Made by a program: the position numbers and the translations under genes. 56,702 bases of DNA from Enterobacteria phage 9g, in sequence record NC_024146.1, one strand, 5' to 3'. Every line of letters begins with the position of its first letter. The stretch's first letter is position 1. The notes below the pieces were generated by a model. That model searched no databases. It was not told the origin of the DNA and saw only the letters and a list, made by a program, of their open reading frames with translations. Shown here in pieces: positions 3,007-43,318 of this stretch.

Positions 3007-3960
3007 TTATTCGTCAAATAAATCCTGGAGACGTTCGTTGAACTTCCCATTGTGGTTAGCAAGAATCATAGCGTTGACCACACCATACGCCCATAAATTG
3101 TATGCAGCGCGTGATTCGTATATGGTTGAAAGTCGTTCGTATGTGAAACCTGACTCCTCTAAGTAGCGCAGAACATTATTCTGTTCTATTTCTGAAAGAT
3201 TACAGATGTGCTGCCCTTGATAGTGGCGTGACGGTGACTTTTCAGATACCTGCATTGGGCCCCACTTAGGAGTTTCAATAGCACCAAACGCCGCAGATTG
3301 AATCCAGGAGGATGAGTCACAGGAGTACCACGGGTAACGCTCCATAAGCGGGCGGGACGTAATACCAAAACCATGAACTTTAATCTTAGCGCGTCCACTA
3401 CCGTCCACAAGGTGCTTATCCCATACCCTGTCCAACCATACCTGAAGTTGTTGTGTACTCGCTCCAACAAGACCACCGAGCGTGATATACTCATAGTTTC
3501 GCACATAATGGTCCAGGTATTCAAAAGGTTCACCGGCGTGGAAGCATGGTAAAGGTCTTACACCTCTGGCTTCCATCTCTTCCTGGTTGCGCCACGTTTG
3601 AAGTGGATCACCAATACCATCGAGTACAGAAGCCATAAGCGAACCATCTTCCACACGGATGATATCTATGTTTCGTTGGATGTAATCACAGTATTCTTTA
3701 ACCGATAACGTAACTCCCAAAGTGTAAGCTGAGAACGCTCCGGAGTCGAGGAATATCTTGGCCCCATCGGCACGCATGGCATCAACATAGGATTGCTTTC
3801 CAACGTAGTGCCAGGATTCGAGAATGTTTGGAATATTTTCGACAACACGTTTTTCTTGTTCGTTGAGTTTGACATAGCGGTTCATTCCTGGTTTATAGCT
3901 GTTCGTATATACGGCAGCCATATAAATCTGAAAGGTATAGTTGATATCTTGTCTGTGCAT
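3007..3960 (-). CDS. dpdA: DpdA-like DNA-guanine transglycosylase (TGT superfamily) for 7-deazaguanine insertion into DNA
   Basis: 317 aa. TGT-like IFLDSGAFSAY (cf. TDSGGFQ) and overall TGT-like length; sits at the 3' end of the folE-queD-queC-queE operon. ATG at 3960 preceded by GGTGA. Confidence 0.75.
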   Translation of the reverse strand: MHRQDINYTFQIYMAAVYTNSYKPGMNRYVKLNEQEKRVVENIPNILESWHYVGKQSYVDAMRADGAKIFLDSGAFSAYTLGVTLSVKEYCDYIQRNIDIIRVEDGSLMASVLDGIGDPLQTWRNQEEMEARGVRPLPCFHAGEPFEYLDHYVRNYEYITLGGLVGASTQQLQVWLDRVWDKHLVDGSGRAKIKVHGFGITSRPLMERYPWYSCDSSSWIQSAAFGAIETPKWGPMQVSEKSPSRHYQGQHICNLSEIEQNNVLRYLEESGFTYERLSTIYESRAAYNLWAYGVVNAMILANHNGKFNERLQDLFDE

Positions 3961-4029
3961 TGTTCACCTAACAAATAAGCGCCCGTAGGCGCTTATTATA
4001 TTAAAGATAATGTATGATTCGCAAATCAG

Positions 4030-4644
4030 TTACTTTTTACACGCTTCAAGAAATTCCCGACGCCATGTGTCACCAGTCACGTCCGGTAATACACCATCAC
4101 CCAATGCAGTACGTCCGCGGAATGCTTTAGTGATGGTTGAGCTTCCGCATACCTGTTTAACACCGCGCGACTCCATGCACATATGTTTTGCATCGATGTA
4201 GACACACACAGCTTTCGGGTCTAAGTGTTCCACGATAGCATCCGCAATCTGATTAGTCAGACGTTCTTGGACTTGCAAACGTCGAGCGAAAGCATCAACT
4301 ACCCGAGATAACTTGCTGAGACCGACGATTTTTCCATTTGGGACATACCCAACCACTGCATGACCAATAATAGGAGCCATGTGATGCTCACAATGACTAT
4401 ATACAGGGATATCACGGACGATGACCATTTCATCACAGTTTTCCCCACCATCTTCAAATGTCTTGAACAGGGATGCGATATCAACAGAATAACCCCCGAA
4501 CCATGTAGCATAAGCCTTAGCTACACGATCTGGAGTTTCTACTAGACCTTCACGCAAGTCATCGCCACCTTCAATCAACTTTAAAATCTTTTCAATACTG
4601 TGCGAAATTTCTGCTCTGTTTGTCATCTTTGTAAATTCATTCAT
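4030..4644 (-). CDS. folE: GTP cyclohydrolase I (FolE)
   Basis: Clear FolE core: ETPDRVAKAY, VIVRDIPVYSHCEHHMAPI, GLSKLSRVVDAFARRLQVQERLT. The longest ORF begins with TTG at 4680 and overlaps queD; the ATG at 4644 with an upstream AAGGA is preferred (4626 is an alternative). Confidence 0.88.
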   Translation of the reverse strand: MNEFTKMTNRAEISHSIEKILKLIEGGDDLREGLVETPDRVAKAYATWFGGYSVDIASLFKTFEDGGENCDEMVIVRDIPVYSHCEHHMAPIIGHAVVGYVPNGKIVGLSKLSRVVDAFARRLQVQERLTNQIADAIVEHLDPKAVCVYIDAKHMCMESRGVKQVCGSSTITKAFRGRTALGDGVLPDVTGDTWRREFLEACKK

Positions 4645-4670: not shown

Positions 4671-5204
4671 TTATTTGCAATAGTTAACATGGCATTTGGA
4701 CGTTTCTTCAATGGTGCATTCTACCAATTCAACACCATATTGGTCAAGTAGTTGAGGACCAATTACGTCAACCATATATGCAGCTAAGTTTTCCGCAGTT
4801 GGGTTGAATGGTAAAGCTACCAAAGAATTAAAGAAAGGATCGTAATCTTCATCCGTCACTAAATTGTTCTCACGTGCAAACTTAGTTGATGCAACAACAA
4901 TGAGCGAATTAATCATGCTGTCTTGTTCCCAATGCAGGAACTTATGATCCCAATTATCTTCCAACCACTGGCAGAGCGTAGTTTTAACCACACTAAAGTC
5001 GATAACCCGACCTACGTCGTCCAGCGAACCTTCTAGAGCAAATCCACTTACAGACTTAACGTAACCTTCCGACAATGTTTTCTTTGGTGCAACTTTAAAA
5101 TGGAACTTATAGTTGTGACCATGAAGATGACGACATTTGCTTTCATGCCCTACAACACGATGCCCAGCGCAAATCTCATGTGAACGAATAACAGTGTAAC
5201 CCAT
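4671..5204 (-). CDS. queD: 6-carboxy-5,6,7,8-tetrahydropterin synthase (QueD / PTPS family)
   Basis: 177 aa. N-terminal CAGHRVVGHESKCRHLHGHNYKF (Cx..HGH zinc/catalytic motif of QueD/PTPS). Confidence 0.85.
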   Translation of the reverse strand: MGYTVIRSHEICAGHRVVGHESKCRHLHGHNYKFHFKVAPKKTLSEGYVKSVSGFALEGSLDDVGRVIDFSVVKTTLCQWLEDNWDHKFLHWEQDSMINSLIVVASTKFARENNLVTDEDYDPFFNSLVALPFNPTAENLAAYMVDVIGPQLLDQYGVELVECTIEETSKCHVNYCK

Positions 5205-5206
5205 TT

Positions 5207-6622
5207 TTATTCCTCGTTTTCGTATTTAATAACTTCTTGTGCGTTATTAATATTAAACGCAGTCCGGCGCATCATGCAAGGGCCGCAAGTACCGCAATGC
5301 AAATTCCCGTTACGGTAACAACTCCAGGTGTGCTCCAACGGGGCCCCTAAACGCAGACCTGTAGCGACAATTTCGTGCTTCATTAAGTTACCTACAGGCA
5401 TGAGCACTTCAACGCGCTTACCATCCCCTACAGCGAACGGTAACACCTGATTAAAGCGATTAATAAACTCAGGTTCGTTGTCCGGATAGGCTCCAGCTTC
5501 TTCTAGGTTGTTACCAAGAACAATATAGTCGAAACCGTTAGCTTCTGCGTATGCAGTAGCAACAGAAAGCATCACAAGGTTACGAGCTGGAACCCATTCA
5601 TGCGCAAACTCAGCGCCTTCTTCACCGCCAGCGATTGCAGCATCTTGATCAAATAATGGGCTATCCTTCTTATCATAAATTGGGATTGGAAATTCAATTA
5701 ATGGAACCCCCATCACTTCCGCAATCTTACGAATAGCATACAGCTCATTAGTTTCTGCACGACAACCATATTGGAAGTTAATCAGAGTAACATCTAAACC
5801 ATTGGACTTACACATTTGAGCTGCTACTGTGCTGTCCATACCACCACTGGCGACAACTAACGCGCGTTGAGTCTGCTTATTTGGAATAAGATCAACTTCA
5901 TTGCATACATCAGTTGATGTAACCACATTACATGAATAAGGCTTCAGCATCTGCTTAATAGCGCGGTTGGGTAGCATGTCTTCCTGGCTGGCGAAATACA
6001 TACCAGTATCAGTCTTACCAATCCAGATTGGACGATAATTACATGCTGTAAACACGCATCCCGGAAAGGAATCATGTGTTGCAAGGATTGCGAAGCTACC
6101 TTTCAATTTGCGAACAACTTCATGAAACACACTGTACAGGTAATTAAAGTCAGACAAACACATTTCATCTGCTGAAAGTGTACATTCTGCTAACTGTTCG
6201 ACAATCGCAGCACTATCAATCTTAGTCTGCAGGGCATAGGTACGAATGTCTTTATCGTTCGCAATAGTACCGTTATGAACAATAGTCCAATCATCCATGT
6301 GATACGGTTGCTGGTCCCACTCATTCTTGTCAACAATCCACTCTGTAGTCGGTTCAGCGCGAGCGTTACCAATCATTGTGAAGCTACCAATAGCTCCAGC
6401 ATGAGATGCAATGCGCCCAACTTTAACAAGACGTTCCAGTGACGTTTCCTTACCGACACTAACGATACGTTGCGGGTGCATACTGTGGTCACCATGCGTA
6501 AAGCGTACACCAAGACCATCACGACCACGCTTGATACTGGCTTTAATAAGATCCTCAATGTCGTTACGGATAATAAGACTTTCAGGTTGACCGTTAGTAA
6601 TAACACCAAAGATAGAGCACAT
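5207..6622 (-). CDS. queC: Gat-QueC fusion: class II (Ntn) glutamine amidotransferase domain fused to a QueC-like 7-cyano-7-deazaguanine synthase domain
   Basis: N-terminus after the start Met is CSIFGV (Cys2 nucleophile, as in AsnB/GlmS-type GATases). C-terminal half has the PP-loop SGGMDS, VPARN, and the zinc motif CGTCGPC of QueC. Start set to the internal ATG at 6620-6622 so that Cys is residue 2; it lies 1 nt after the upstream gene's stop. Confidence 0.85.
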   Translation of the reverse strand: MCSIFGVITNGQPESLIIRNDIEDLIKASIKRGRDGLGVRFTHGDHSMHPQRIVSVGKETSLERLVKVGRIASHAGAIGSFTMIGNARAEPTTEWIVDKNEWDQQPYHMDDWTIVHNGTIANDKDIRTYALQTKIDSAAIVEQLAECTLSADEMCLSDFNYLYSVFHEVVRKLKGSFAILATHDSFPGCVFTACNYRPIWIGKTDTGMYFASQEDMLPNRAIKQMLKPYSCNVVTSTDVCNEVDLIPNKQTQRALVVASGGMDSTVAAQMCKSNGLDVTLINFQYGCRAETNELYAIRKIAEVMGVPLIEFPIPIYDKKDSPLFDQDAAIAGGEEGAEFAHEWVPARNLVMLSVATAYAEANGFDYIVLGNNLEEAGAYPDNEPEFINRFNQVLPFAVGDGKRVEVLMPVGNLMKHEIVATGLRLGAPLEHTWSCYRNGNLHCGTCGPCMMRRTAFNINNAQEVIKYENEE

Positions 6623-32879: not shown

Positions 32880-33431
32880 ATGGTAAAGCCTATTCTACCT
32901 TGGACACGTAGCATTGAATACGAAGCCGATCTCACTGAAGAAGAGATGGCTATACGTGACTCTGTCGTTGAAGAATATCTGTTCGATTATGATTGGGTTA
33001 ATGCGTGTAAACGTGTAGGCATGAGCTCCGCAATGGCGTTTGATTATGCTAAACGTTTTCAGGATGATAGCTATTGCCAAAGACGAATTAAAGAACTTCA
33101 ACAGCAGAAAGCAAGAAGTGCTGAACGTGACCGCAAATATGAAATAGAACAAGAGCGCCAGCGCATCATTGAAGGTCTTAGATTTGAATCCACTTATCGT
33201 GGTCCTGGATCTTCTCAAGCTGCTCGTGTTGCTGCATATAAACAATTATGTAGCATCTTTGGATTTGAAGCTCCTAAGCAACAGAAGATGGATGTTGGCG
33301 TATCTACTGGTGTTATGCTGGTTCCTATGGTTGGTTCTATGGCTGATTGGGAAAGAGTTGCTGGGGAGTCTCAGACTAAGCTGCAAGAGGATACTTTAAA
33401 TGGACTCAATGATTCAGACACCGTCCACTAA
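32880..33431 (+). CDS. Terminase small subunit
   Basis: ATG at 32880 (GGAG 7 nt upstream) preferred over the TTG at 32823; 183 aa, charged and helical; immediately upstream of and overlapping TerL. Confidence 0.6.
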   Translation: MVKPILPWTRSIEYEADLTEEEMAIRDSVVEEYLFDYDWVNACKRVGMSSAMAFDYAKRFQDDSYCQRRIKELQQQKARSAERDRKYEIEQERQRIIEGLRFESTYRGPGSSQAARVAAYKQLCSIFGFEAPKQQKMDVGVSTGVMLVPMVGSMADWERVAGESQTKLQEDTLNGLNDSDTVH

Positions 33432-34998
33432 GGTAGTATGGAAACCACATCCAGGATCTCAGGTACTGGCACTAAGTTGTCCAGCAGATGAGATTTTATA
33501 TCATGGTACTCGTGGCCCTGGAAAGACCGATGCTCAGTTGATGCGTTTTCGTCGTTATGTTGGCATGGGGTATGGTAAACACTGGCGCGGTATCATTTTT
33601 GACCGAGAATACAAAAACTTAGATGACTTAGTTGCAAAGTCACAGCGTTGGTTTCCTGAATTTAATGATGGTTGTAAATTCTTATCTTCCAAGTCAGATT
33701 ATAAATGGGTATGGCCTAGCGGCGAAGAACTAATGTTCCGTGTTGCTAAAAAACCTAAGGATTACTGGCTGTACCACGGTCAGGAATTTCCATTTATTGG
33801 ATGGAACGAATTAACTAAATATCCTGATAGTGGGCTTTATGAAGCAATGAAGTCCTGTAACCGTACATCCTTTGTTGCAGAAGAAAACCCAATAATTATT
33901 GACGGTGATGTGTATCAGAGAACTGGGCGTCTTGTGCTTGTTCAACCGGACCATGAATACGCAATGCAGTTCATACTACCACCTTTGCCGTTGCAGATCT
34001 TTTCTACGACTAACCCATTTGGGGTTGGACATAACTGGGTCAAGAAATATTTTATTAACTCTTGCCCTCTTGGGTCCATGAAGAAGGAAGTAACAAACGT
34101 CTTCAACCCTCGTACACAGAAACGGGAAGACGTAGTTCGAACTCGCTGCCATATATTTGGTTCGTATCGAGAGAACCGCAACTTGACACCTGAGTATGTT
34201 GCGCAGCTTGTAAACATTGACGATCCTAACCTCCGTATGGCATGGCTCGGTGGTAGCTGGGATATTACGTCAGGCGGAATGTTCGACGACCTGTGGCGTC
34301 AGAATATACATGTGGTCAAGCCATTCCCAATACCTCACTCCTGGAGAATTGATAGATCATTTGACTGGGGCTCAAGTAAACCGTTTTCTGTTGGTTGGTG
34401 GGCAAGAAGTGATGGTAGTGATATCGTGTATCCAAATGGGCGTCGTGTACGAACAGTACGAGGTGACTTATTTAGGATCATGGAGTGGTATGGTACTAAC
34501 GGGAAACCGAACGAAGGTTTAAGATTATTGGATTCTGAAATTGCTCGTGGTATCATCGTCAGGGAAATTGAAGCTGGTTTATACGGTCGCGTAGTTCCAG
34601 GCCCTGCTGATAACAGCATTTGGGACGTTAAGGACGGTAACAGTACCGCAGCAACAATGTCTAAACCAATAACTATCAATGGTCGGTCTTATCCTGGTGT
34701 ACAGTGGATTCGAAGTGATAAATCCCCTGGATCTCGTAAAGCAGGTTGGAAACGAATGCGGGAATATTTAGCTGCTTCAATTCCGGATCCTAAGGTTGCC
34801 GCTTTACGTGAAAGACCTTCTATGTTTATTTTTGATAACTGTCATCACTTTATAGATCTTGTTCCAACTCTTGCTAGAGACGAAGATGATCTTGATGATG
34901 TCGATACTGATTCTGAAGACCACATTGCTGACGAAGCTCGTTATCGCGTAGCTAACGAAGCACGTGGTGGTAGTATCGGTAAGACTGTTGGGACATAA
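33400..34998 (+). CDS. Terminase large subunit
   Basis: 532 aa. Walker A GTRGPGKT near the N-terminus; C-terminal nuclease-like acidic residues; AAGAGG upstream. Confidence 0.9.
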   Translation: MDSMIQTPSTKVVWKPHPGSQVLALSCPADEILYHGTRGPGKTDAQLMRFRRYVGMGYGKHWRGIIFDREYKNLDDLVAKSQRWFPEFNDGCKFLSSKSDYKWVWPSGEELMFRVAKKPKDYWLYHGQEFPFIGWNELTKYPDSGLYEAMKSCNRTSFVAEENPIIIDGDVYQRTGRLVLVQPDHEYAMQFILPPLPLQIFSTTNPFGVGHNWVKKYFINSCPLGSMKKEVTNVFNPRTQKREDVVRTRCHIFGSYRENRNLTPEYVAQLVNIDDPNLRMAWLGGSWDITSGGMFDDLWRQNIHVVKPFPIPHSWRIDRSFDWGSSKPFSVGWWARSDGSDIVYPNGRRVRTVRGDLFRIMEWYGTNGKPNEGLRLLDSEIARGIIVREIEAGLYGRVVPGPADNSIWDVKDGNSTAATMSKPITINGRSYPGVQWIRSDKSPGSRKAGWKRMREYLAASIPDPKVAALRERPSMFIFDNCHHFIDLVPTLARDEDDLDDVDTDSEDHIADEARYRVANEARGGSIGKTVGT

Positions 34999-35010: not shown

Positions 35011-36537
35011 ATGGCCATTTCTTCGGTTCATCCTAAATATTTACAGTTTAGTGCATTATGGTTGAAGATGCGGGACTGTTTCCTTGGGGCTGACCACGTT
35101 AAGGCTCAAGGTACTTTGTATCTTCCACCGACACCTGCTATGCGTTATGACGGTATGAAACCAGGCGAAGATGGCTATCTCCGTTACAGCGATTATAAAG
35201 AACGTGCGGTGTTCCCGGAGTATGTCGCTGATGCGGTAGTTAATCACAGTGGTATGCTTCATAGCAAGTCAGCTATTATTCAGTTACCTGCTGCAATGGA
35301 ACCACTTCGTCAATCTGCTACCAGCAAGCGCGAAGGTTTAGATCAGCTACTACGCCGCATAAACGAGCTACAGCTACGCGATGGTCGTCTTGGCCTTCTG
35401 TTGGAGCTGCCAGCGGGAAGTACCCGTGACACGCTGCCGTACATCGCAGTATACGAGGCGTTAAGTATACGAAACTGGGACGATGGTGAAGATGATCTTG
35501 GTTCACTTAACCTTAACCTAGTTGTTCTGGATGAGTCCAAAGAAGTAATGGACAAGACTTCATTTGATTGGACTTATAAAGTTCAATATCGAGTTCTTGT
35601 TCTTGGAAGCGCCAACGTAAATGAACCATCAGATAGCGGTTACGTGTATGGGCAGTATATGACAGAACTGCTTCCTGGCGAAGATGACGAACCAGAAGAG
35701 GTGAGCTCTGACGTTGTAGTCCCTCAATATAAAGGTACTCCTCTTGAGCAGATACCTTTCGTATTTTGTAACGCCATGGACTTAGTCCCAGAACCTGATA
35801 AACCACCGCTACTTGCATTAGCAAACAGATGTATTTCCATTTATCAGGGTGAAGCTGATTATCGACAGGCTTTGTTTATGCAGAGCCAGGATACGCTGGT
35901 TGTTCGCGGTGGTATTACGAACAGTGACGCAATTGATGATAAAGCTCCTGTTCGTGTTGGTGCTGGTGCTCGTATTGATGTATCTCCGGACGGTGATGCC
36001 AAATACATTGGTACTAATTCACAAGGTTTACCGGAGCAACGTAAGGCACTTGAAGCTGACCATAAAGACGCTCAGACCCGTTCCGGGCATTTAACCAGTG
36101 CAGAAAATGCTTCTCAAGAATCTGGTGACGCACTGGAAACACGTCTTATCACCAAGACTGCTTCATTAGTTGGTATTGCTAAGACTGGTGCTGCTGCGTT
36201 AGAAAAAATCCTTCGTATTTGTGCTATATGGATGGGATTAAATCCAGATGAAGTTAGAGTTACACCTAACCTTGACTTCAGCAAAGCTAATATTGAAGGC
36301 CAGGAATTGGTGCAGGTGCAGACTGCCAAGAATCTTGGTGCTCCGTTATGTGCTGAGTCTATGCACAACTGGTTGCAGGATAAGGGAATGACCTCTTTGA
36401 CGTTTGAAGAGGAGATGAAACGACTTGAGGAGGAGCGCAAAGAATACCCGTTCCTTTTACCTCAAGTTAAAAACGATCAGAACCAAATCCAGCAAATAAC
36501 TGGAGAACAAACGGGGAATGAAAATGCCGCTAAGTAA
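35011..36537 (+). CDS. Portal protein
   Basis: 508 aa directly after TerL; AAGGAG 8 nt upstream; portal-like size and position. Confidence 0.8.
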   Translation: MAISSVHPKYLQFSALWLKMRDCFLGADHVKAQGTLYLPPTPAMRYDGMKPGEDGYLRYSDYKERAVFPEYVADAVVNHSGMLHSKSAIIQLPAAMEPLRQSATSKREGLDQLLRRINELQLRDGRLGLLLELPAGSTRDTLPYIAVYEALSIRNWDDGEDDLGSLNLNLVVLDESKEVMDKTSFDWTYKVQYRVLVLGSANVNEPSDSGYVYGQYMTELLPGEDDEPEEVSSDVVVPQYKGTPLEQIPFVFCNAMDLVPEPDKPPLLALANRCISIYQGEADYRQALFMQSQDTLVVRGGITNSDAIDDKAPVRVGAGARIDVSPDGDAKYIGTNSQGLPEQRKALEADHKDAQTRSGHLTSAENASQESGDALETRLITKTASLVGIAKTGAAALEKILRICAIWMGLNPDEVRVTPNLDFSKANIEGQELVQVQTAKNLGAPLCAESMHNWLQDKGMTSLTFEEEMKRLEEERKEYPFLLPQVKNDQNQIQQITGEQTGNENAAK

Positions 36538-36610: not shown

Positions 36611-36641
36611 AGCGCGGTAGAACGGTCTATCGCGCTTTTTA
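36611..36641 (+). terminator. Terminator-like hairpin after the portal gene
   Basis: agcgcg(36611-36616) / cgcgct(36631-36636), then TTTTT. Confidence 0.35.
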
Positions 36642-36668
36642 GTGGAACGGTCCACAATGGAGAATTTT

Positions 36669-37547
36669 ATGAACAACTATCACATTCATCTAGCGGTAGC
36701 TTATTCCACTGGCTTCTTCCAGTCCATGCCTCGTTTTGGTGCATTGGAACTTGAATATACTTCTGAAGATGAGATCCCGGAAAATGCGCGTGAGTATTAT
36801 TCCCAAGAAGGCGATAAGTGGATCCTCACTGGTGTAAAGGGTGGTGGCAAACAGAATATTGACAGGTTGCAATCCGCACTTGAAAAAGAACGCAACGATC
36901 ATAAAGCGGTCAAGAGTAAGCTAAGTAAGCTGAACGGACGTGATATTGACGAACTCTTGCAGCGCGACGCTGAATATGAAGAGCTTAAACTGCGTGCGGA
37001 TAAAGTTGATGATGAAAAGTTGGAGCAGATCATTAACGTACGAATCCGTAACAAGTTAACTCCGCTTGAGCGTGAACGTGACGAGCTGAAAAACAAACTT
37101 TCTACCTATGAGAAGCAAGTAGAAGAGTTGACCACAAAAGAGAAGAACCGCATCGTTAAAACCGCTCTGAGCAAGGCTGCAATGTCTGCTAAAGTGATCA
37201 CGGAAGCTATTGACGACGTGGAACTGATTGGTTCTCGTTTATTTGAGCTCACCGAAGACGGTCAGGTTGTAACACGCGACGGTGTGGGTGTAACTCCTGG
37301 AATCACTCCAGAAATGTGGTTACAGGATATTCAGGATAAGAAACCTCACTGGTTCCCTGGAAACGTTGGCGGTGGTGCTGGTGGCTCACGTACTCCTGGC
37401 GCTGCTGGTAAGAACCCGTGGAGTGCCGACGGTTGGAACCTTACTGAGCAGGGTAAAATTCTTCGTGAAAATCCTGAAAAAGCAGGCCGTCTGGCAGCCA
37501 TGGTAGGCGTGGACTTGAAGCGTCCAGTACGTCCAGTTAAAAAATAA
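36669..37547 (+). CDS. Putative head scaffolding protein
   Basis: Coiled-coil-rich (ERNDHKAVKSKLSKL...ELKLRADK...); lies between portal and capsid genes. Start could be 36657 or 36669 (GGAG 7 nt upstream); the GTG at 36642 is unlikely. Confidence 0.55.
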   Translation: MNNYHIHLAVAYSTGFFQSMPRFGALELEYTSEDEIPENAREYYSQEGDKWILTGVKGGGKQNIDRLQSALEKERNDHKAVKSKLSKLNGRDIDELLQRDAEYEELKLRADKVDDEKLEQIINVRIRNKLTPLERERDELKNKLSTYEKQVEELTTKEKNRIVKTALSKAAMSAKVITEAIDDVELIGSRLFELTEDGQVVTRDGVGVTPGITPEMWLQDIQDKKPHWFPGNVGGGAGGSRTPGAAGKNPWSADGWNLTEQGKILRENPEKAGRLAAMVGVDLKRPVRPVKK

Positions 37548-37685: not shown

Positions 37686-38789
37686 ATGTCTAAAATTCTG
37701 TCAGCTCCGATGCTTAATTTGCGAGCTACTAATTCAATTCTTCTGTCTGCTGTTCGTCGTGGTGCAATCACTGAACTTGCAGATGTTATCGTTCCAGAAA
37801 TCTTCGTACCGTATGTGCAGAACCGCACGACTGAGAAGTCTCGACTGATTCAGTCTGGTGCTATTGAGATTTCTGAGCGTCTTAACGCCGCATTGATGGG
37901 TGAAGGTACTACCTTTAACCAGCGTTTCTTCAAAGACCTGGATCGTGACGAAGAAAACGTTTCAAGCGCAAGCGATTCAACCGATTCTACTCCTGGTGGT
38001 ATCAAATCTGGGCGTGAAATTCAGATCCGTCTGTCCCGTAACCATTCATGGGGTTCCGCGGACCTGCTGGACAGCTTGATCTCCCCTGATCCGCTGGATG
38101 CTATCATTAATTTAGTGGCAAGCTACCGTCAGAGCCGTCTGCAACGTGCATTCGTTGCAACTGTAGGTGGTGTGTTTGCTATGAACGCCGCTGCTCCGGC
38201 TGGTTCCGGTGATAAGAAGTCTACTCACGTTCAGAACGATATGACCCATGATATCTCTGGTTCATCCTTCACCGATGGTGTGACTAACTTCAACCCGGCT
38301 GGTGTTATCCTGGCTGCTGGTACTATGGGTGACTCCCTGAACGACCTGTCTATGATGATGGTTCACAGTGTGGTCTACCAGCGTATGCAGCTGATGAACC
38401 TGATCGACTTCATCCCGGATGCTCGTGCTGAAGTAATGATCCCAACCTACATGGGCCGTGAAGTTATCGTTGATGATATGATGCCTCACGACGGCGGTAA
38501 GTACGAAACCTGGCTGGTCGGCCGTGGCGCATTCCAGTTAGGTGTTGGTTCACCGAAAGTTCCTGTTGAAACTGAACGTAAACCTGCATCCTACAAAGGT
38601 GGCGGTTCTGAAATCCTGTTCCACCGCTGGGAAAACATCATTCACCCTGTCGGTCACGCATGGGTTGGTACTGCTGCTGAAGGTGGTCCGGATAACGCCG
38701 CTCTGAAGACTGCTACCAACTGGGCTCGTGTATTCCCTGAGCGTAAACAGATTAAGATTGCTCGCCTGATCACTCGCGAACACGCTTAA
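37686..38789 (+). CDS. Major capsid protein (lambda gpE-like)
   Basis: Start moved to the ATG at 37686 (GGAG upstream). Segments KPASYKGGGSEILFH and PDNAALKTATNWARVF resemble lambda gpE as remembered; followed by a strong terminator. Confidence 0.75.
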   Translation: MSKILSAPMLNLRATNSILLSAVRRGAITELADVIVPEIFVPYVQNRTTEKSRLIQSGAIEISERLNAALMGEGTTFNQRFFKDLDRDEENVSSASDSTDSTPGGIKSGREIQIRLSRNHSWGSADLLDSLISPDPLDAIINLVASYRQSRLQRAFVATVGGVFAMNAAAPAGSGDKKSTHVQNDMTHDISGSSFTDGVTNFNPAGVILAAGTMGDSLNDLSMMMVHSVVYQRMQLMNLIDFIPDARAEVMIPTYMGREVIVDDMMPHDGGKYETWLVGRGAFQLGVGSPKVPVETERKPASYKGGGSEILFHRWENIIHPVGHAWVGTAAEGGPDNAALKTATNWARVFPERKQIKIARLITREHA

Positions 38790-38808
38790 TGCTTTAGCCA
38801 TGTAATTA

Positions 38809-38834
38809 AAGGGGCCTATATGGTCCCTTTTTTG
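38809..38834 (+). terminator. Rho-independent terminator after the capsid gene
   Basis: aaggggcc(38809-38816) / ggtccctt(38822-38829) with one G-U pair, loop TATA, then TTTTTTG. Confidence 0.6.
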
Positions 38835-38846
38835 TTAGGAGGAAAC

Positions 38847-39290
38847 ATGCGTTATCAACGTTATCAACGTCATTCAAGACATCGTCGTTATGTACGTCAT
38901 GAACGTCACGGTTCAGATGCAACACCTAAAGCAAAGATTAAGACTGTAGGTAAAGTTCAGTATTCAGCTGATGGTGAAAGTGGTTGGCAGGATACAATCC
39001 CTGAAGGTCTTATGAAAGTAAGCACACCACTGACTTTCTACATTCGTGCTAAAGAAGTAGATCCAGAGGATGATGGTTCTTATATCTACAAGTTTGAAAT
39101 TGCTACTGGAACTGGTGATGCGTTGTCTCTTCAAAATACGGACGTCAACAAAGCAAAAATCTCTGGTACGGCTCCAGAAGGTATGCTGAGTAAAACGTTC
39201 AGTGTGAACTGTACTGTTGAAGACAGTTATGGGACAGAAGTTACGGGAACTGCATTAACACAAGCCTGGTCTGCAGCTTCTGAAGCATAA
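38847..39290 (+). CDS. Hypothetical virion protein with Arg/His-rich N-terminus (possible head decoration protein)
   Basis: AGGAGG then ATG at 38847; N-terminal MRYQRYQRHSRHRRYVRHERH, then a beta-rich (Ig-like?) domain; flanked by terminators on both sides. Confidence 0.55.
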   Translation: MRYQRYQRHSRHRRYVRHERHGSDATPKAKIKTVGKVQYSADGESGWQDTIPEGLMKVSTPLTFYIRAKEVDPEDDGSYIYKFEIATGTGDALSLQNTDVNKAKISGTAPEGMLSKTFSVNCTVEDSYGTEVTGTALTQAWSAASEA

Positions 39291-39316
39291 ACGTTAAATT
39301 GCTAGATGTTTTAAAG

Positions 39317-39350
39317 GGTGTTACACTTCGCTTGTAACACCTTTTATTTT
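39317..39350 (+). terminator. Rho-independent terminator
   Basis: ggtgttaca(39317-39325) / tgtaacacc(39333-39341), then TTTTATTTT. Confidence 0.6.
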
Positions 39351-39359
39351 GAGGAATGA

Positions 39360-40031
39360 ATGATGAAAGACAAGATCATTGAAGGGCTTCGTAAACTCAA
39401 CGTTGAGAATGACAATCATTGGACTGCCGATGGCCTGCCTAAAATTGAAGCATTGAAGTTTACAGTTGGCCCGTCCGTCACGCGAGAAGATGTCAATTCT
39501 GTTGCGCCTGGGTTCACTCGTTCAAATCCTGTAATTGAGGACGTCGAACATGAAGAAAAGCATGACACTTCCTCATTGCAGGAAACCGAACAGACGGAAG
39601 TTGTTGCAGATACCGACAATGCACAATATGAGTCCTTATCTAAGGCTGAAGCAGATAAGGAAACTGTTAACGGTAAATCGATTGTCACTACGCGAGTAGC
39701 TTTAGAAGTCAACGTGAGCGATGCAGTTAAAGCAATGCTCAAAGGTATTCCAGATATTGACTTTGACACTGTTTCTGTGGAAGAGCTTAAAGAATATGAA
39801 AAAGTTCTTTCAGAACAAGTCAACGCAGACAACCAGATGTTATCTGCAATGAACGAACTTGTTGAATCTCGTGCTAAACTGTACGCAAAAGTCAACACTG
39901 AGATTGAACGTCGTAAGCCTAAGACCGAACTGGCTCACACGTTAGCATCTTTCCGCGATCAGATGGCACAAATCCCGCATGTGGTCAATCAGCCTCGTAT
40001 GGTTGTTCGTAACGGTATTCGCACTCGTTAA
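39360..40031 (+). CDS. Hypothetical acidic structural-region protein
   Basis: 223 aa, GAGGA upstream. Confidence 0.55.
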   Translation: MMKDKIIEGLRKLNVENDNHWTADGLPKIEALKFTVGPSVTREDVNSVAPGFTRSNPVIEDVEHEEKHDTSSLQETEQTEVVADTDNAQYESLSKAEADKETVNGKSIVTTRVALEVNVSDAVKAMLKGIPDIDFDTVSVEELKEYEKVLSEQVNADNQMLSAMNELVESRAKLYAKVNTEIERRKPKTELAHTLASFRDQMAQIPHVVNQPRMVVRNGIRTR

Positions 40032-40039
40032 GGTGACAT

Positions 40040-40369
40040 ATGGCATTTCGAACAGACAAAAAGTTCTTGTTTCATATGATGCAACGTAACAGACGTCGTC
40101 GAGATGCCACGTTGAACCCTGTAAGCGGTGTCCTGGGGTGGGTAACGCCGCCCCCGTCGACAGGTGTGGTAGATACCGATTACGTTACAACGTGGCAGAA
40201 TGGACAAACACCTTACGTTGTACAGGTCTTTAAAGATAAAGAATTGGTCTCACAGAATCAGTCTGATTTGCAGACCTTCACAATTAACGAATCGTCTGCT
40301 GCAAGGCATGACATTAAAATTATAAGTGCAGACGGTCAGATTCTTAATGGTACAATAGATATCGCCTGA
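40040..40369 (+). CDS. Hypothetical protein
   Basis: 109 aa, AAGGTGA upstream. Confidence 0.5.
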   Translation: MAFRTDKKFLFHMMQRNRRRRDATLNPVSGVLGWVTPPPSTGVVDTDYVTTWQNGQTPYVVQVFKDKELVSQNQSDLQTFTINESSAARHDIKIISADGQILNGTIDIA

Positions 40370-42136: not shown

Positions 42137-43318
42137 ATGGCTGAAGGTTCACGTTATAGTAGCTATTACATCAAAGAACAGACCTCCGGTGTCACTCCGT
42201 CTAGCGGAACTCTGAAGGTCTTTCGTGCTACTAAATCGGGTCTTGATATTAAAGTCGCTACTCTGCAATCTGAAGAAATTCGAGATGACGCGGAAGTGGC
42301 GGATTTCCGTCTTGGTGCTCGACACGTAGAAGGTACAGCAACGGGTGAACTGTCTTATGAGACATTTGATGACCTGTTGGGTGGTGCGTTACGTGGTACG
42401 TTTGCGGACGAAGTGTTAACCGCAGGCATCGAGCGCCAATCCTTTACTTTTATCGACTATAACGCAGATATTGCGGACTTCCCGTATACCATCTATCGCG
42501 GTTGTGAAGTTAACAGTCTTGCAATTACTGTAAGTGCTGAAGCTATCACCGGCGTGGAATTCGGTATTGTTGGTCGTACAATGGAACAAGCTGCTGCCCT
42601 GCCGTCTGGTCTAAGTAAAGGTACTCGTACGACTACATCACCTATGGACGGCTTCTCTGGTAAGCTGGCTATGGGCGATGTGTCCGTTGATGTTATTACT
42701 GAGATGGCTATTAACCTTGAGAACGGCATCGAGCCTCGCTTCGTTGTTGGTTCCAAGTTCTCTATCAAGCCAAGTTCTAAACGTCGTCAGATTAGTGGTA
42801 CACTAACCGCCTACTACGAAGATAATAAACTGCGTAGTAAATTCCTGAACGAACAGGAAAGTGACCTGACTATCGACATCCTGGACGGAACTACTGGTGC
42901 CGGTTATCGCTTCAGTATGCCTCGTATCAAGATTACGGAAGCTCCGCGTCCGATCGATGGTGAAGGCGATATCATGCTGAACATGAGTTATACTGGTCTG
43001 CTGGATCAGGGAGAAGGTTACAGCATTCGTATTACCAAACTTCCTCCGATGTCTTTCACGACCGATCTTACCGCAGACAAGACTATCACTAAAGGACAAA
43101 CCTTAACCCTTTCAGTTGTGGTCAAAGGCGGTGAAGAACCTTATACCTATGTGTGGAAGAAAGGTGGTGTTGTTATTCCGGAAGCTAAACAAGCGACATA
43201 CACTAAATCTAACGCACAAGAAGCGGATGCCGGTCAGTATGTATGTGAAGTAACAGATTCACATGGTCGTACTATACCGAGCACATCTTGCCTTGTTGCT
43301 GTTAATCCTGGTGAGTAA
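42137..43318 (+). CDS. Major tail protein with C-terminal Ig-like domain
   Basis: 393 aa, AGAGGA upstream. C-terminal ~90 aa (TKGQTLTLSVVVKGGEEPYTYVWKKGGVVI...AGQYVCEVTDSHG) look like a Big_2/Ig-like fold; followed by a terminator. Confidence 0.7.
   Translation: MAEGSRYSSYYIKEQTSGVTPSSGTLKVFRATKSGLDIKVATLQSEEIRDDAEVADFRLGARHVEGTATGELSYETFDDLLGGALRGTFADEVLTAGIERQSFTFIDYNADIADFPYTIYRGCEVNSLAITVSAEAITGVEFGIVGRTMEQAAALPSGLSKGTRTTTSPMDGFSGKLAMGDVSVDVITEMAINLENGIEPRFVVGSKFSIKPSSKRRQISGTLTAYYEDNKLRSKFLNEQESDLTIDILDGTTGAGYRFSMPRIKITEAPRPIDGEGDIMLNMSYTGLLDQGEGYSIRITKLPPMSFTTDLTADKTITKGQTLTLSVVVKGGEEPYTYVWKKGGVVIPEAKQATYTKSNAQEADAGQYVCEVTDSHGRTIPSTSCLVAVNPGE

Follow-up and report, generated by a model that had tools for sequence, protein, structure and literature searches.

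Gene 54 of Enterobacteria phage 9g probably encodes a modular head-decoration protein whose N-terminal R-[H/Y]-x repeat peptide is a candidate capsid anchor

The window analyzed here, a stretch of 56,702 nucleotides (NC_024146.1), is the essentially complete genome of Enterobacteria phage 9g (Nonagvirus, Queuovirinae), which was published as 56,703 bp (PMC4276943), and our subject is gene 54 of this phage, the gene that follows the major capsid protein gene. Its coding sequence (CDS; 38847..39290, plus strand; ATG at 38847, TAA at 39290) specifies a protein of 147 amino acids, gp54, identical to 'hypothetical protein 9g_00054' (AHN84570.1), hypothetical being the sole annotation it has received. 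A Shine-Dalgarno (SD) sequence, AGGAGG (38837..38842, plus strand), can be read directly from the DNA 4 nt upstream of the ATG and is the same in relatives, while the upstream gene (37686..38789, plus strand; start as annotated in relatives) encodes a major capsid protein of the SPP1 gp13 type; a preliminary description of this DNA, made from the sequence alone, had correctly stated the SD sequence and the position after a capsid gene. A longer in-frame start at 38820 was considered and rejected, as it lies inside the hairpin of a terminator upstream of the gene, lacks an SD sequence and is not kept in other lineages. The region as a whole is 94.6–97.5% identical to the closest 14 of 16 full-length Nonagvirus records.

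Two modules make up gp54: a repeat peptide (residues 2–22) and a confidently predicted immunoglobulin (Ig)-like sandwich (residues ~31–143). The peptide is encoded by seven tandem 9-bp units of the form CGT-YAT-NNN (38850..38912, plus strand), which translate into seven R-[Y/H]-x triplets (RYQ RYQ RHS RHR RYV RHE RHG). At the DNA level the 9-bp repeat is degenerate, and Tandem Repeats Finder reports period 9 at 38850–38870 and at 38886–38908. The preliminary description had remarked on a start made up almost entirely of R, H, Y and Q, and these residues indeed account for 16 of the first 20 (8 R, 3 H, 3 Y, 2 Q). Within the 21-residue segment RYQRYQRHSRHRRYVRHERHG, R, H and Y together fill 15 of 21 positions (8 R, 4 H, 3 Y), the top value across the six reading frames of the whole window (56.7 kb), where the next best segment reaches 12. 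The peptide has a net charge of about +7, is predicted by AlphaFold2 to be disordered (predicted local distance difference test (pLDDT) 47–63), shows no glycine periodicity and is not of the collagen-like Gly-X-Y kind. It is followed by a linker, SDATPKAK (residues 23–30; 38913..38936, plus strand), of low to intermediate pLDDT, whose length and sequence vary across lineages.

The number of repeats varies by whole three-residue units, from seven in 9g through six in most Nonagvirus members and five in both SE1 and Vid5 to three in Seuratvirus; an additional RYQ unit is found in 9g only. Conservation is strongest towards the end of the array, in the last units (R-[H/Y]-x-R-[H/Y]-[E/D]-R-[H/Y]), and the motif is kept in lineages whose capsid proteins are 54–85% identical. 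Gene 54 is a real gene under purifying selection: among 12 Nonagvirus alleles, the ratio of nonsynonymous to synonymous polymorphism (pN/pS) is 0.10 for the peptide and linker and 0.15 for the domain, and synonymous changes are present inside the peptide-coding part. Taken together, the low ratio and these synonymous changes indicate that the constraint acts on the protein rather than on a DNA or RNA motif.

The second module (residues ~31–143; 38937..39275, plus strand) forms the core of PHROG 18016, a family that gp54 matches over nearly its full length (E 2.1e-99; gp54 residues 4–146 against profile positions 1–143 of 144). AlphaFold2 predicts an eight-stranded Ig-like sandwich for residues ~30–143 (pLDDT 90–96; predicted template modeling score 0.73), which bears out the beta-rich domain that the preliminary description had proposed and assigns the predicted fold to the Ig-like beta-sandwich kind represented by Hoc, pb10 and N4 gp17.

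We compared 84 loci, comprising 80 viral contigs that carry a related capsid gene (51–99% identity), the window and three other loci. The position 3' of the capsid gene behaves as a variable slot: it holds a gene with the canonical repeat peptide at 18 loci, one with a different basic N-terminus at 12 and one of the family phrog_11997 at 34, is empty at 11, and in related phages may also hold other small proteins. Such variability is typical of accessory decoration genes. The R/H/Y repeat, on the other hand, is carried only by proteins encoded directly 3' of a gp13-like capsid gene. What follows the peptide differs greatly. In 9g-type proteins it precedes the PHROG 18016 domain, and it does so even in P0023, whose domain and capsid protein are 32% and 54% identical to those of 9g, respectively, with MPRHVHYKRHRYHHPARYDRH, the post-capsid position and both terminators retained. 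Elsewhere, in phages with capsid proteins 82–85% identical to that of 9g, the canonical peptide is joined to a Hoc-type Ig_2/Ig_3 domain (phrog_2973, E 2e-22); in Seuratvirus it carries a third beta-rich domain; and in Vid5 gp07 (40 amino acids) and at locus L049 (59 amino acids) almost nothing stands behind it. These comparisons show the peptide to be the constant part, tied to the capsid type, and the domain behind it to be exchangeable or dispensable.

The second basic N-terminus in the slot, roughly YARxVRxRxxDRxRHSxxFLxWL, is present at 12 loci (L060, L070, L071, L077 and others), where it stands before varied domains of up to 397 amino acids. Its alignment with the canonical peptide reached an hhalign probability of 47% over 11 columns, and we did not count these 12 loci as having the same anchor. 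The phrog_11997 proteins are ~170–195 amino acids long with the N-terminus MKGLPRSxSRG (L029, L033 and ~32 other loci; one example is at 2589–3098 of L102, Pseudomonas phage BL5). They gave no match in PDB or Pfam, and may represent an alternative decoration protein.

Ig domains of the I-set type link the slot with the tail. The major tail protein of 9g (gene at 42137–43318) ends in an I-set-type Ig domain (43064–43303), and the Ig domain borne by the canonical peptide in Enterobacter phage EC151 is 44% identical to it; class B proteins of Klebsiella phages carry the same I-set type as EC151. We regard this as evidence, from sequence comparison, that Ig domains may have been shuffled between the tail tube protein and the protein of the head slot. 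The EC151 protein (L101, 2598–2942) is annotated 'tail fibers protein' and that of Klebsiella phage vB_KppS-Raw 'putative tail protein'. As both are encoded in the head slot and begin with the R/H/Y peptide, these labels are probably mis-annotations that arose from Ig-domain similarity alone.

The Ig-like domain of gp54 also occurs apart from the peptide. Its profile, searched exhaustively against 1.84 billion representative proteins, matches 43 of them, and most full-length matches have the domain at their C-terminus, preceded by unrelated N-terminal regions. In three proteins (P0011, P0018 and P0027) it is fused to a major capsid protein of the SU10 type (PF17236, E 1e-58 to 1e-75), and Aeromonas phage APT65 encodes four consecutive SU10-type capsid paralogues (L006, 163–4357), the last of which has a C-terminal PHROG 18016 domain. 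In Guernseyvirinae and in another lineage it is joined to N-terminal domains annotated as 'Hoc-like head decoration' (phrog_3945, phrog_11091); in Yersinia phage P778 it lies behind a 120-residue domain in a protein that its depositors named 'head outer capsid protein'; and in a Chaseviridae phage it forms a gene by itself, immediately 5' of the capsid gene. Each of these settings speaks for the head surface, and the Ig module would appear to be a mobile capsid-display domain.

The peptide-only proteins bear directly on whether the peptide is found in virions. Pantoea phage Vid5 gp07, MNKSRYVRYRRHSRYIRYRANVNETPVEPPEEGGETGEGQ, is a protein of 40 amino acids that starts with MNKSRYVRYRRHSRYIRYR and is encoded directly 3' of the capsid gene and its terminator. 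It was detected in purified virions by liquid chromatography–tandem mass spectrometry (2 peptides, 57.5% coverage) and was described by its authors as having no homologues (PMC6266253). Since gp07 consists of little more than the repeat peptide, we take its detection as evidence that the peptide may suffice for virion association. In Escherichia phage CAjan, gp06, which combines a three-unit peptide with a beta-rich domain, carries the depositors' label 'structural protein', and its neighbour is labelled 'hypothetical'; the labels of this phage reportedly derive from mass spectrometry. The Ig module, for its part, is dispensable for plaque formation. In the viable BASEL phages ChristophMerian and FritzHoffmann roughly 330 nt of the region are missing, and in ChristophMerian the alignment (L016, 1290–1522) reveals that a natural in-frame deletion has removed the Ig module and left a 33-amino-acid open reading frame for the peptide, MRYQRHSRHRRYVRHERLGSDATPKEKIETVEV, with the SD sequence, T1 and T2 intact; FritzHoffmann shows the same reduced coverage. 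These two phages are natural domain-less mutants that can be used experimentally.

Gene 54 is bracketed by two hairpins. The upstream one, T1 (38808..38836, plus strand; -14.6 kcal/mol, z -2.3), has a 9-bp GC-rich stem (AAAGGGGCC-TATAT-GGTCCCTTT) followed by TTTTTT, its stem-loop proper (38808–38830) lying directly 3' of the capsid gene; the downstream one, T2 (39312..39350, plus strand; -16.6 kcal/mol, z -3.9), has a 14-bp stem (UAAAGGGUGUUACA-CUUCGCU-UGUAACACCUUUUA) followed by UUUU, with its stem-loop proper at 39312–39346. A scanner for consensus terminators flagged T1, missed T2 and found 9 sites in total where 8.0 were expected from shuffled sequences; because this total matches the shuffles and T2 was missed, the scanner alone provides no evidence, and the support comes from conservation. 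A GC-rich hairpin of the T1 type with a T-run lies 3' of the capsid gene in 18 of 18 loci with the canonical peptide, its stems being unrelated in sequence between loci (GGGGCC/GGTCCC, GGGCC/GGCCC, GGGCGGC/GCCGCC, GGCGAC/GTCGCC). T2 is kept in all 15 complete Ig-bearing loci, with compensatory double changes in 3 of 12 pairs, and is absent at the peptide-only genes of Vid5 and L049. Furthermore, the depositors of phages HdK1 and SP8 marked the same terminators. With a GC-rich hairpin, an adjoining U-tract and a conserved position, both are predicted Rho-independent terminators, and the two strong terminators of the preliminary description are thus both present.

The conclusion drawn there, that such bracketing is typical of very abundant virion proteins, fared less well. 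T1 ends 1 nt before the SD sequence, which leaves no room for a promoter, and a promoter of its own for gene 54, for which no site was found, was rejected. The gene would accordingly be transcribed only by read-through of T1, so that the amount of gp54 is predicted to lie below, not to equal, that of the capsid protein, and the argument from bracketing to high abundance is weak. In the arrangement that we envisage, transcription would reach gene 54 by T1 read-through and most of it would stop at T2, and this attenuation would yield a graded output in which capsid protein exceeds gp54 and gp54 exceeds the head-completion and tail proteins. A third strong terminator-like hairpin (36611–36636; -17.4 kcal/mol, z -2.9) separates the portal gene from the scaffold gene, and the scaffold and capsid genes are thus likewise bracketed by terminators.

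In the 9g genome, gene 54 sits within a standard head module, after the capsid gene and ahead of the head-completion genes. Upstream are the genes for the large terminase (33400–34998), portal (35011–36537), scaffold (36642–37547) and major capsid protein. The identification of the last rests on a match to phrog_247 (E 1.4e-107), a match to PF20036 (Gp13-like) at 27.2 bits against a cut-off of 26.4 bits, and similarity to the SPP1 coat protein in PDB (4an5/6r3a; E 7e-43); this gp13-like protein is the presumed binding partner of the gp54 peptide. The next gene downstream (39363..40031, plus strand) encodes 222 amino acids with an acidic middle and the N-terminal motif NDNHWTADGLP, and belongs to phrog_10966 (E 1.2e-113), a family without assigned function. 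It always lies 3' of the variable slot and is directly 3' of the capsid gene in the 11 related loci with an empty slot; the adaptor, head-closure and tail genes come after it. At 40040–40369 lies a gene for a beta-rich protein of 109 amino acids (phrog_17875) with an arginine-rich N-terminus of its own, MMQRNRRRRD, which may be a second basic-tailed accessory protein of the head. In the record of Escherichia phage vB_EcoS_HdK1 (L001), the capsid gene (3187–4304) and the next gene (4858–5531) are broken into two or three CDS fragments; these splits are probably sequencing frameshifts and not biology.

We propose that gp54 is a non-essential, modular head-decoration protein in which the repeat peptide serves as the anchor and the Ig-like domain is displayed, a reading to which, on the comparative evidence, we give a probability of roughly 0.6. 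The preliminary description had guessed at a decoration protein with a nucleic-acid- or capsid-binding tail and a beta-rich domain, and comparison with other phages supports this guess through the Ig-like fold, the fusions of the domain to capsid proteins and Hoc-like parts, the joining of the peptide to a Hoc-type Ig domain and the presence of Vid5 gp07 in virions; it is the argument for high abundance that is weak. The peptide is the only conserved part of gp54 outside the Ig-like domain and occurs only in the gp13-like capsid lineage. With ~20 residues and disordered when free, it could anchor gp54 to the outside of the mature SPP1 gp13-like lattice, conceivably through arginine–carboxylate contacts together with aromatic or histidine contacts; in peptide-bearing lineages the capsid subunit has a net charge of about -8. 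The Ig-like domain would then project from the head and might adhere weakly to glycans or cell surfaces, the role that has been proposed for the Ig-like domains of T4 Hoc and T5 pb10 (PMC7602432). In some phages the peptide alone persists as a mini-protein of 33–59 amino acids. The recurrence of such forms suggests a function of its own for the peptide, which may be to cement the capsid or to neutralize its surface charge.

Several observations weigh against this proposal. Pfam and PHROG searches with gp54 returned none of the Hoc or pb10 family models; sequence searches of PDB with gp54 and with the domain profile returned no match, and no solved structure is related to gp54 by sequence. The paper describing 9g contains no SDS–polyacrylamide gel electrophoresis or mass-spectrometry terms and no virion proteomic or structural data, our literature search found no cryo-electron microscopy paper on a Queuovirinae capsid, and the mass spectrometry of Vid5 establishes association with the virion without a location inside the particle. 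When peptide and capsid protein were joined in a single AlphaFold2 construct (peptide residues 1–34, a (GGGGS)x6 linker and the capsid protein; 18-row paired alignment), no docking was obtained (mean pLDDT 52.8, about 30 for the peptide), an outcome that is uninformative because the model was a monomer without lattice context and the alignment was shallow. When per-column charge was compared between the capsid proteins of 20 non-redundant loci that have the peptide and 26 that lack it, no acidic capsid patch emerged that co-varies with it; capsid proteins from phages lacking the peptide are in fact more acidic on average, at about -12 per subunit versus -8, in a comparison that is confounded by phylogeny. 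Finally, there are the I-set homologues, labelled as tail proteins and similar in their Ig domain to the 9g major tail protein.

These homologues lead to the most serious alternative, which we nevertheless consider unlikely, namely that gp54 is an accessory Ig protein of the tail or neck and that the peptide docks on the tail tube, the neck or some other part that is not the capsid. Besides the labels of the peptide-bearing I-set proteins and the 44% identity mentioned above, a PHROG that bears the annotation 'tail protein' is a weak match (E 2e-5) for the N-terminal domain of P0010, and the detection of gp07 in Vid5 virions would be compatible with this view as well. However, the gene is always found directly 3' of the capsid gene, before the head-completion genes; fusions join the PHROG 18016 domain to major capsid proteins and to anchors of the Hoc-like head-decoration type; and the 'tail' labels appear to stem from nothing other than Ig-domain similarity. 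Slightly less probable still is an interaction of the peptide with nucleic acid, either with packaged DNA, as an internal or pore-threading element, or with the RNA of the flanking hairpins, where it would tune termination or translation. In composition (8 R, 4 H and 3 Y among its 21 residues) and net charge (about +7) it does resemble arginine-rich nucleic-acid-binding peptides, two RNA hairpins do flank the gene, and a small basic virion peptide such as Vid5 gp07 would also fit a DNA-associated protein. Yet T1 differs in sequence between lineages that share the peptide, structure alone being kept, which makes a specific RNA target unlikely, and the acidic tail of Vid5 gp07 is ill-suited to DNA condensation. 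Moreover, the attached modules are Ig-like display domains that elsewhere form the C-terminal end of capsid proteins or are mounted on Hoc-like anchors, and both of these are exterior positions.

The third alternative, a peptide that acts mainly in assembly, in scaffold or procapsid targeting, and forms no stable anchor on the mature surface, strikes us as highly improbable. The gene does neighbour the scaffold and capsid genes, and the internal proteins of T4 do have short N-terminal capsid-targeting sequences; against this, neither a prohead protease nor a cleavage motif was seen in the head module, the Ig module is dispensable while the peptide is retained alone, and Ig-like domains are not known to serve as internal head proteins.

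If the anchoring peptide of a head-decoration protein is what we have before us, a bolder form of the proposal can be considered, although we hold it only tentatively and think it rather less likely to be right than wrong: (R-[H/Y]-x)n might be an autonomous and portable capsid-binding tag of ~9–21 residues that accepts any cargo and that, on its own, would act as a mini-decoration neutralizing or cementing an acidic capsid, possibly in a pH-dependent manner through its histidines. In its boldest version, each of six canonical triplets would touch a different subunit of a hexamer, about its quasi-sixfold axis; if so, the internal repeat would explain how a single monomer can be matched to six subunits.

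Head decoration is a familiar kind of function, whereas the repeat-peptide anchor and its natural modularity are undescribed and possibly reusable. The proposal would assign a function to the 'hypothetical' families PHROG 18016, phrog_27336 and Vid5 gp07 in Queuovirinae and related siphophages, and would correct probable 'tail protein' mis-annotations among the homologues. Known Ig-like decoration proteins anchor via folded domains, so that a repeat peptide of ~20 residues, should it prove sufficient, would constitute a new anchoring principle; a review of decoration proteins mentions no arginine-rich or basic peptide anchor (PMC7602432). If true, the peptide would also make a practical tag for placing antigens or enzymes on these capsids, much like the pb10 anchor on T5. 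The natural series itself, from the peptide only, through the peptide with three different beta-rich domains, to Ig–capsid fusions, displays the shuffling of domains onto phage heads in unusual detail.

Among known systems, T5 pb10 is small and non-essential and combines an N-terminal capsid-binding part with a C-terminal Ig-like domain, the same arrangement that we propose for gp54. The anchor of pb10, however, is a folded alpha-helical domain of about 75 residues, while that proposed for gp54 is a disordered repeat peptide of ~20 residues, and the two proteins share no sequence or family match. pb10 is thought to serve adhesion rather than stability (PMC5292684, PMC7602432). T4 Hoc, like the proposed gp54, is a dispensable accessory protein with Ig-like domains on the head, and relatives of 9g bear Hoc-type Ig_2/Ig_3 domains on the peptide, just as the 9g domain sits on Hoc-like anchor domains in Guernseyvirinae. 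Hoc comprises three Ig-like domains along with a separate capsid-binding domain, in contrast to gp54, whose single Ig-like domain belongs to another family (PHROG 18016); the Hoc-like PHROGs, moreover, are matched only by domain-swapped relatives and not by the 9g protein itself.

SPP1 gp12 decorates a capsid homologous to that of 9g, and its gene, too, adjoins the capsid gene. Both proteins have a three-residue periodicity, collagen-like G-X-Y in gp12 versus R-[H/Y]-x in gp54, but gp12 is a collagen-like trimer, while gp54 is not collagen-like, is unrelated in sequence and adds an Ig-like domain. Like lambda N and HIV Tat and Rev, gp54 carries an N-terminal peptide that is short, disordered and dominated by arginine and that presumably becomes folded upon binding. 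The targets of lambda N, Tat and Rev are specific RNA hairpins, whereas the gp54 peptide has no conserved RNA target: no cognate hairpin of the lambda N type was found at T1, whose stem and loop sequences are wholly different between lineages that share the peptide. It also differs in its strict three-residue period, in the His or Tyr that follows each Arg, and in being joined to virion display domains. Lastly, Vid5 gp07 and CAjan gp06 have not previously been connected with 9g gp54. The former, at 40 amino acids, has no folded domain, and in the latter the repeat is limited to three units and is followed by an unrelated beta-rich domain (phrog_27336), but both begin with the same R-[H/Y]-x repeat as gp54 and are encoded, as it is, directly 3' of a gp13-like capsid gene.

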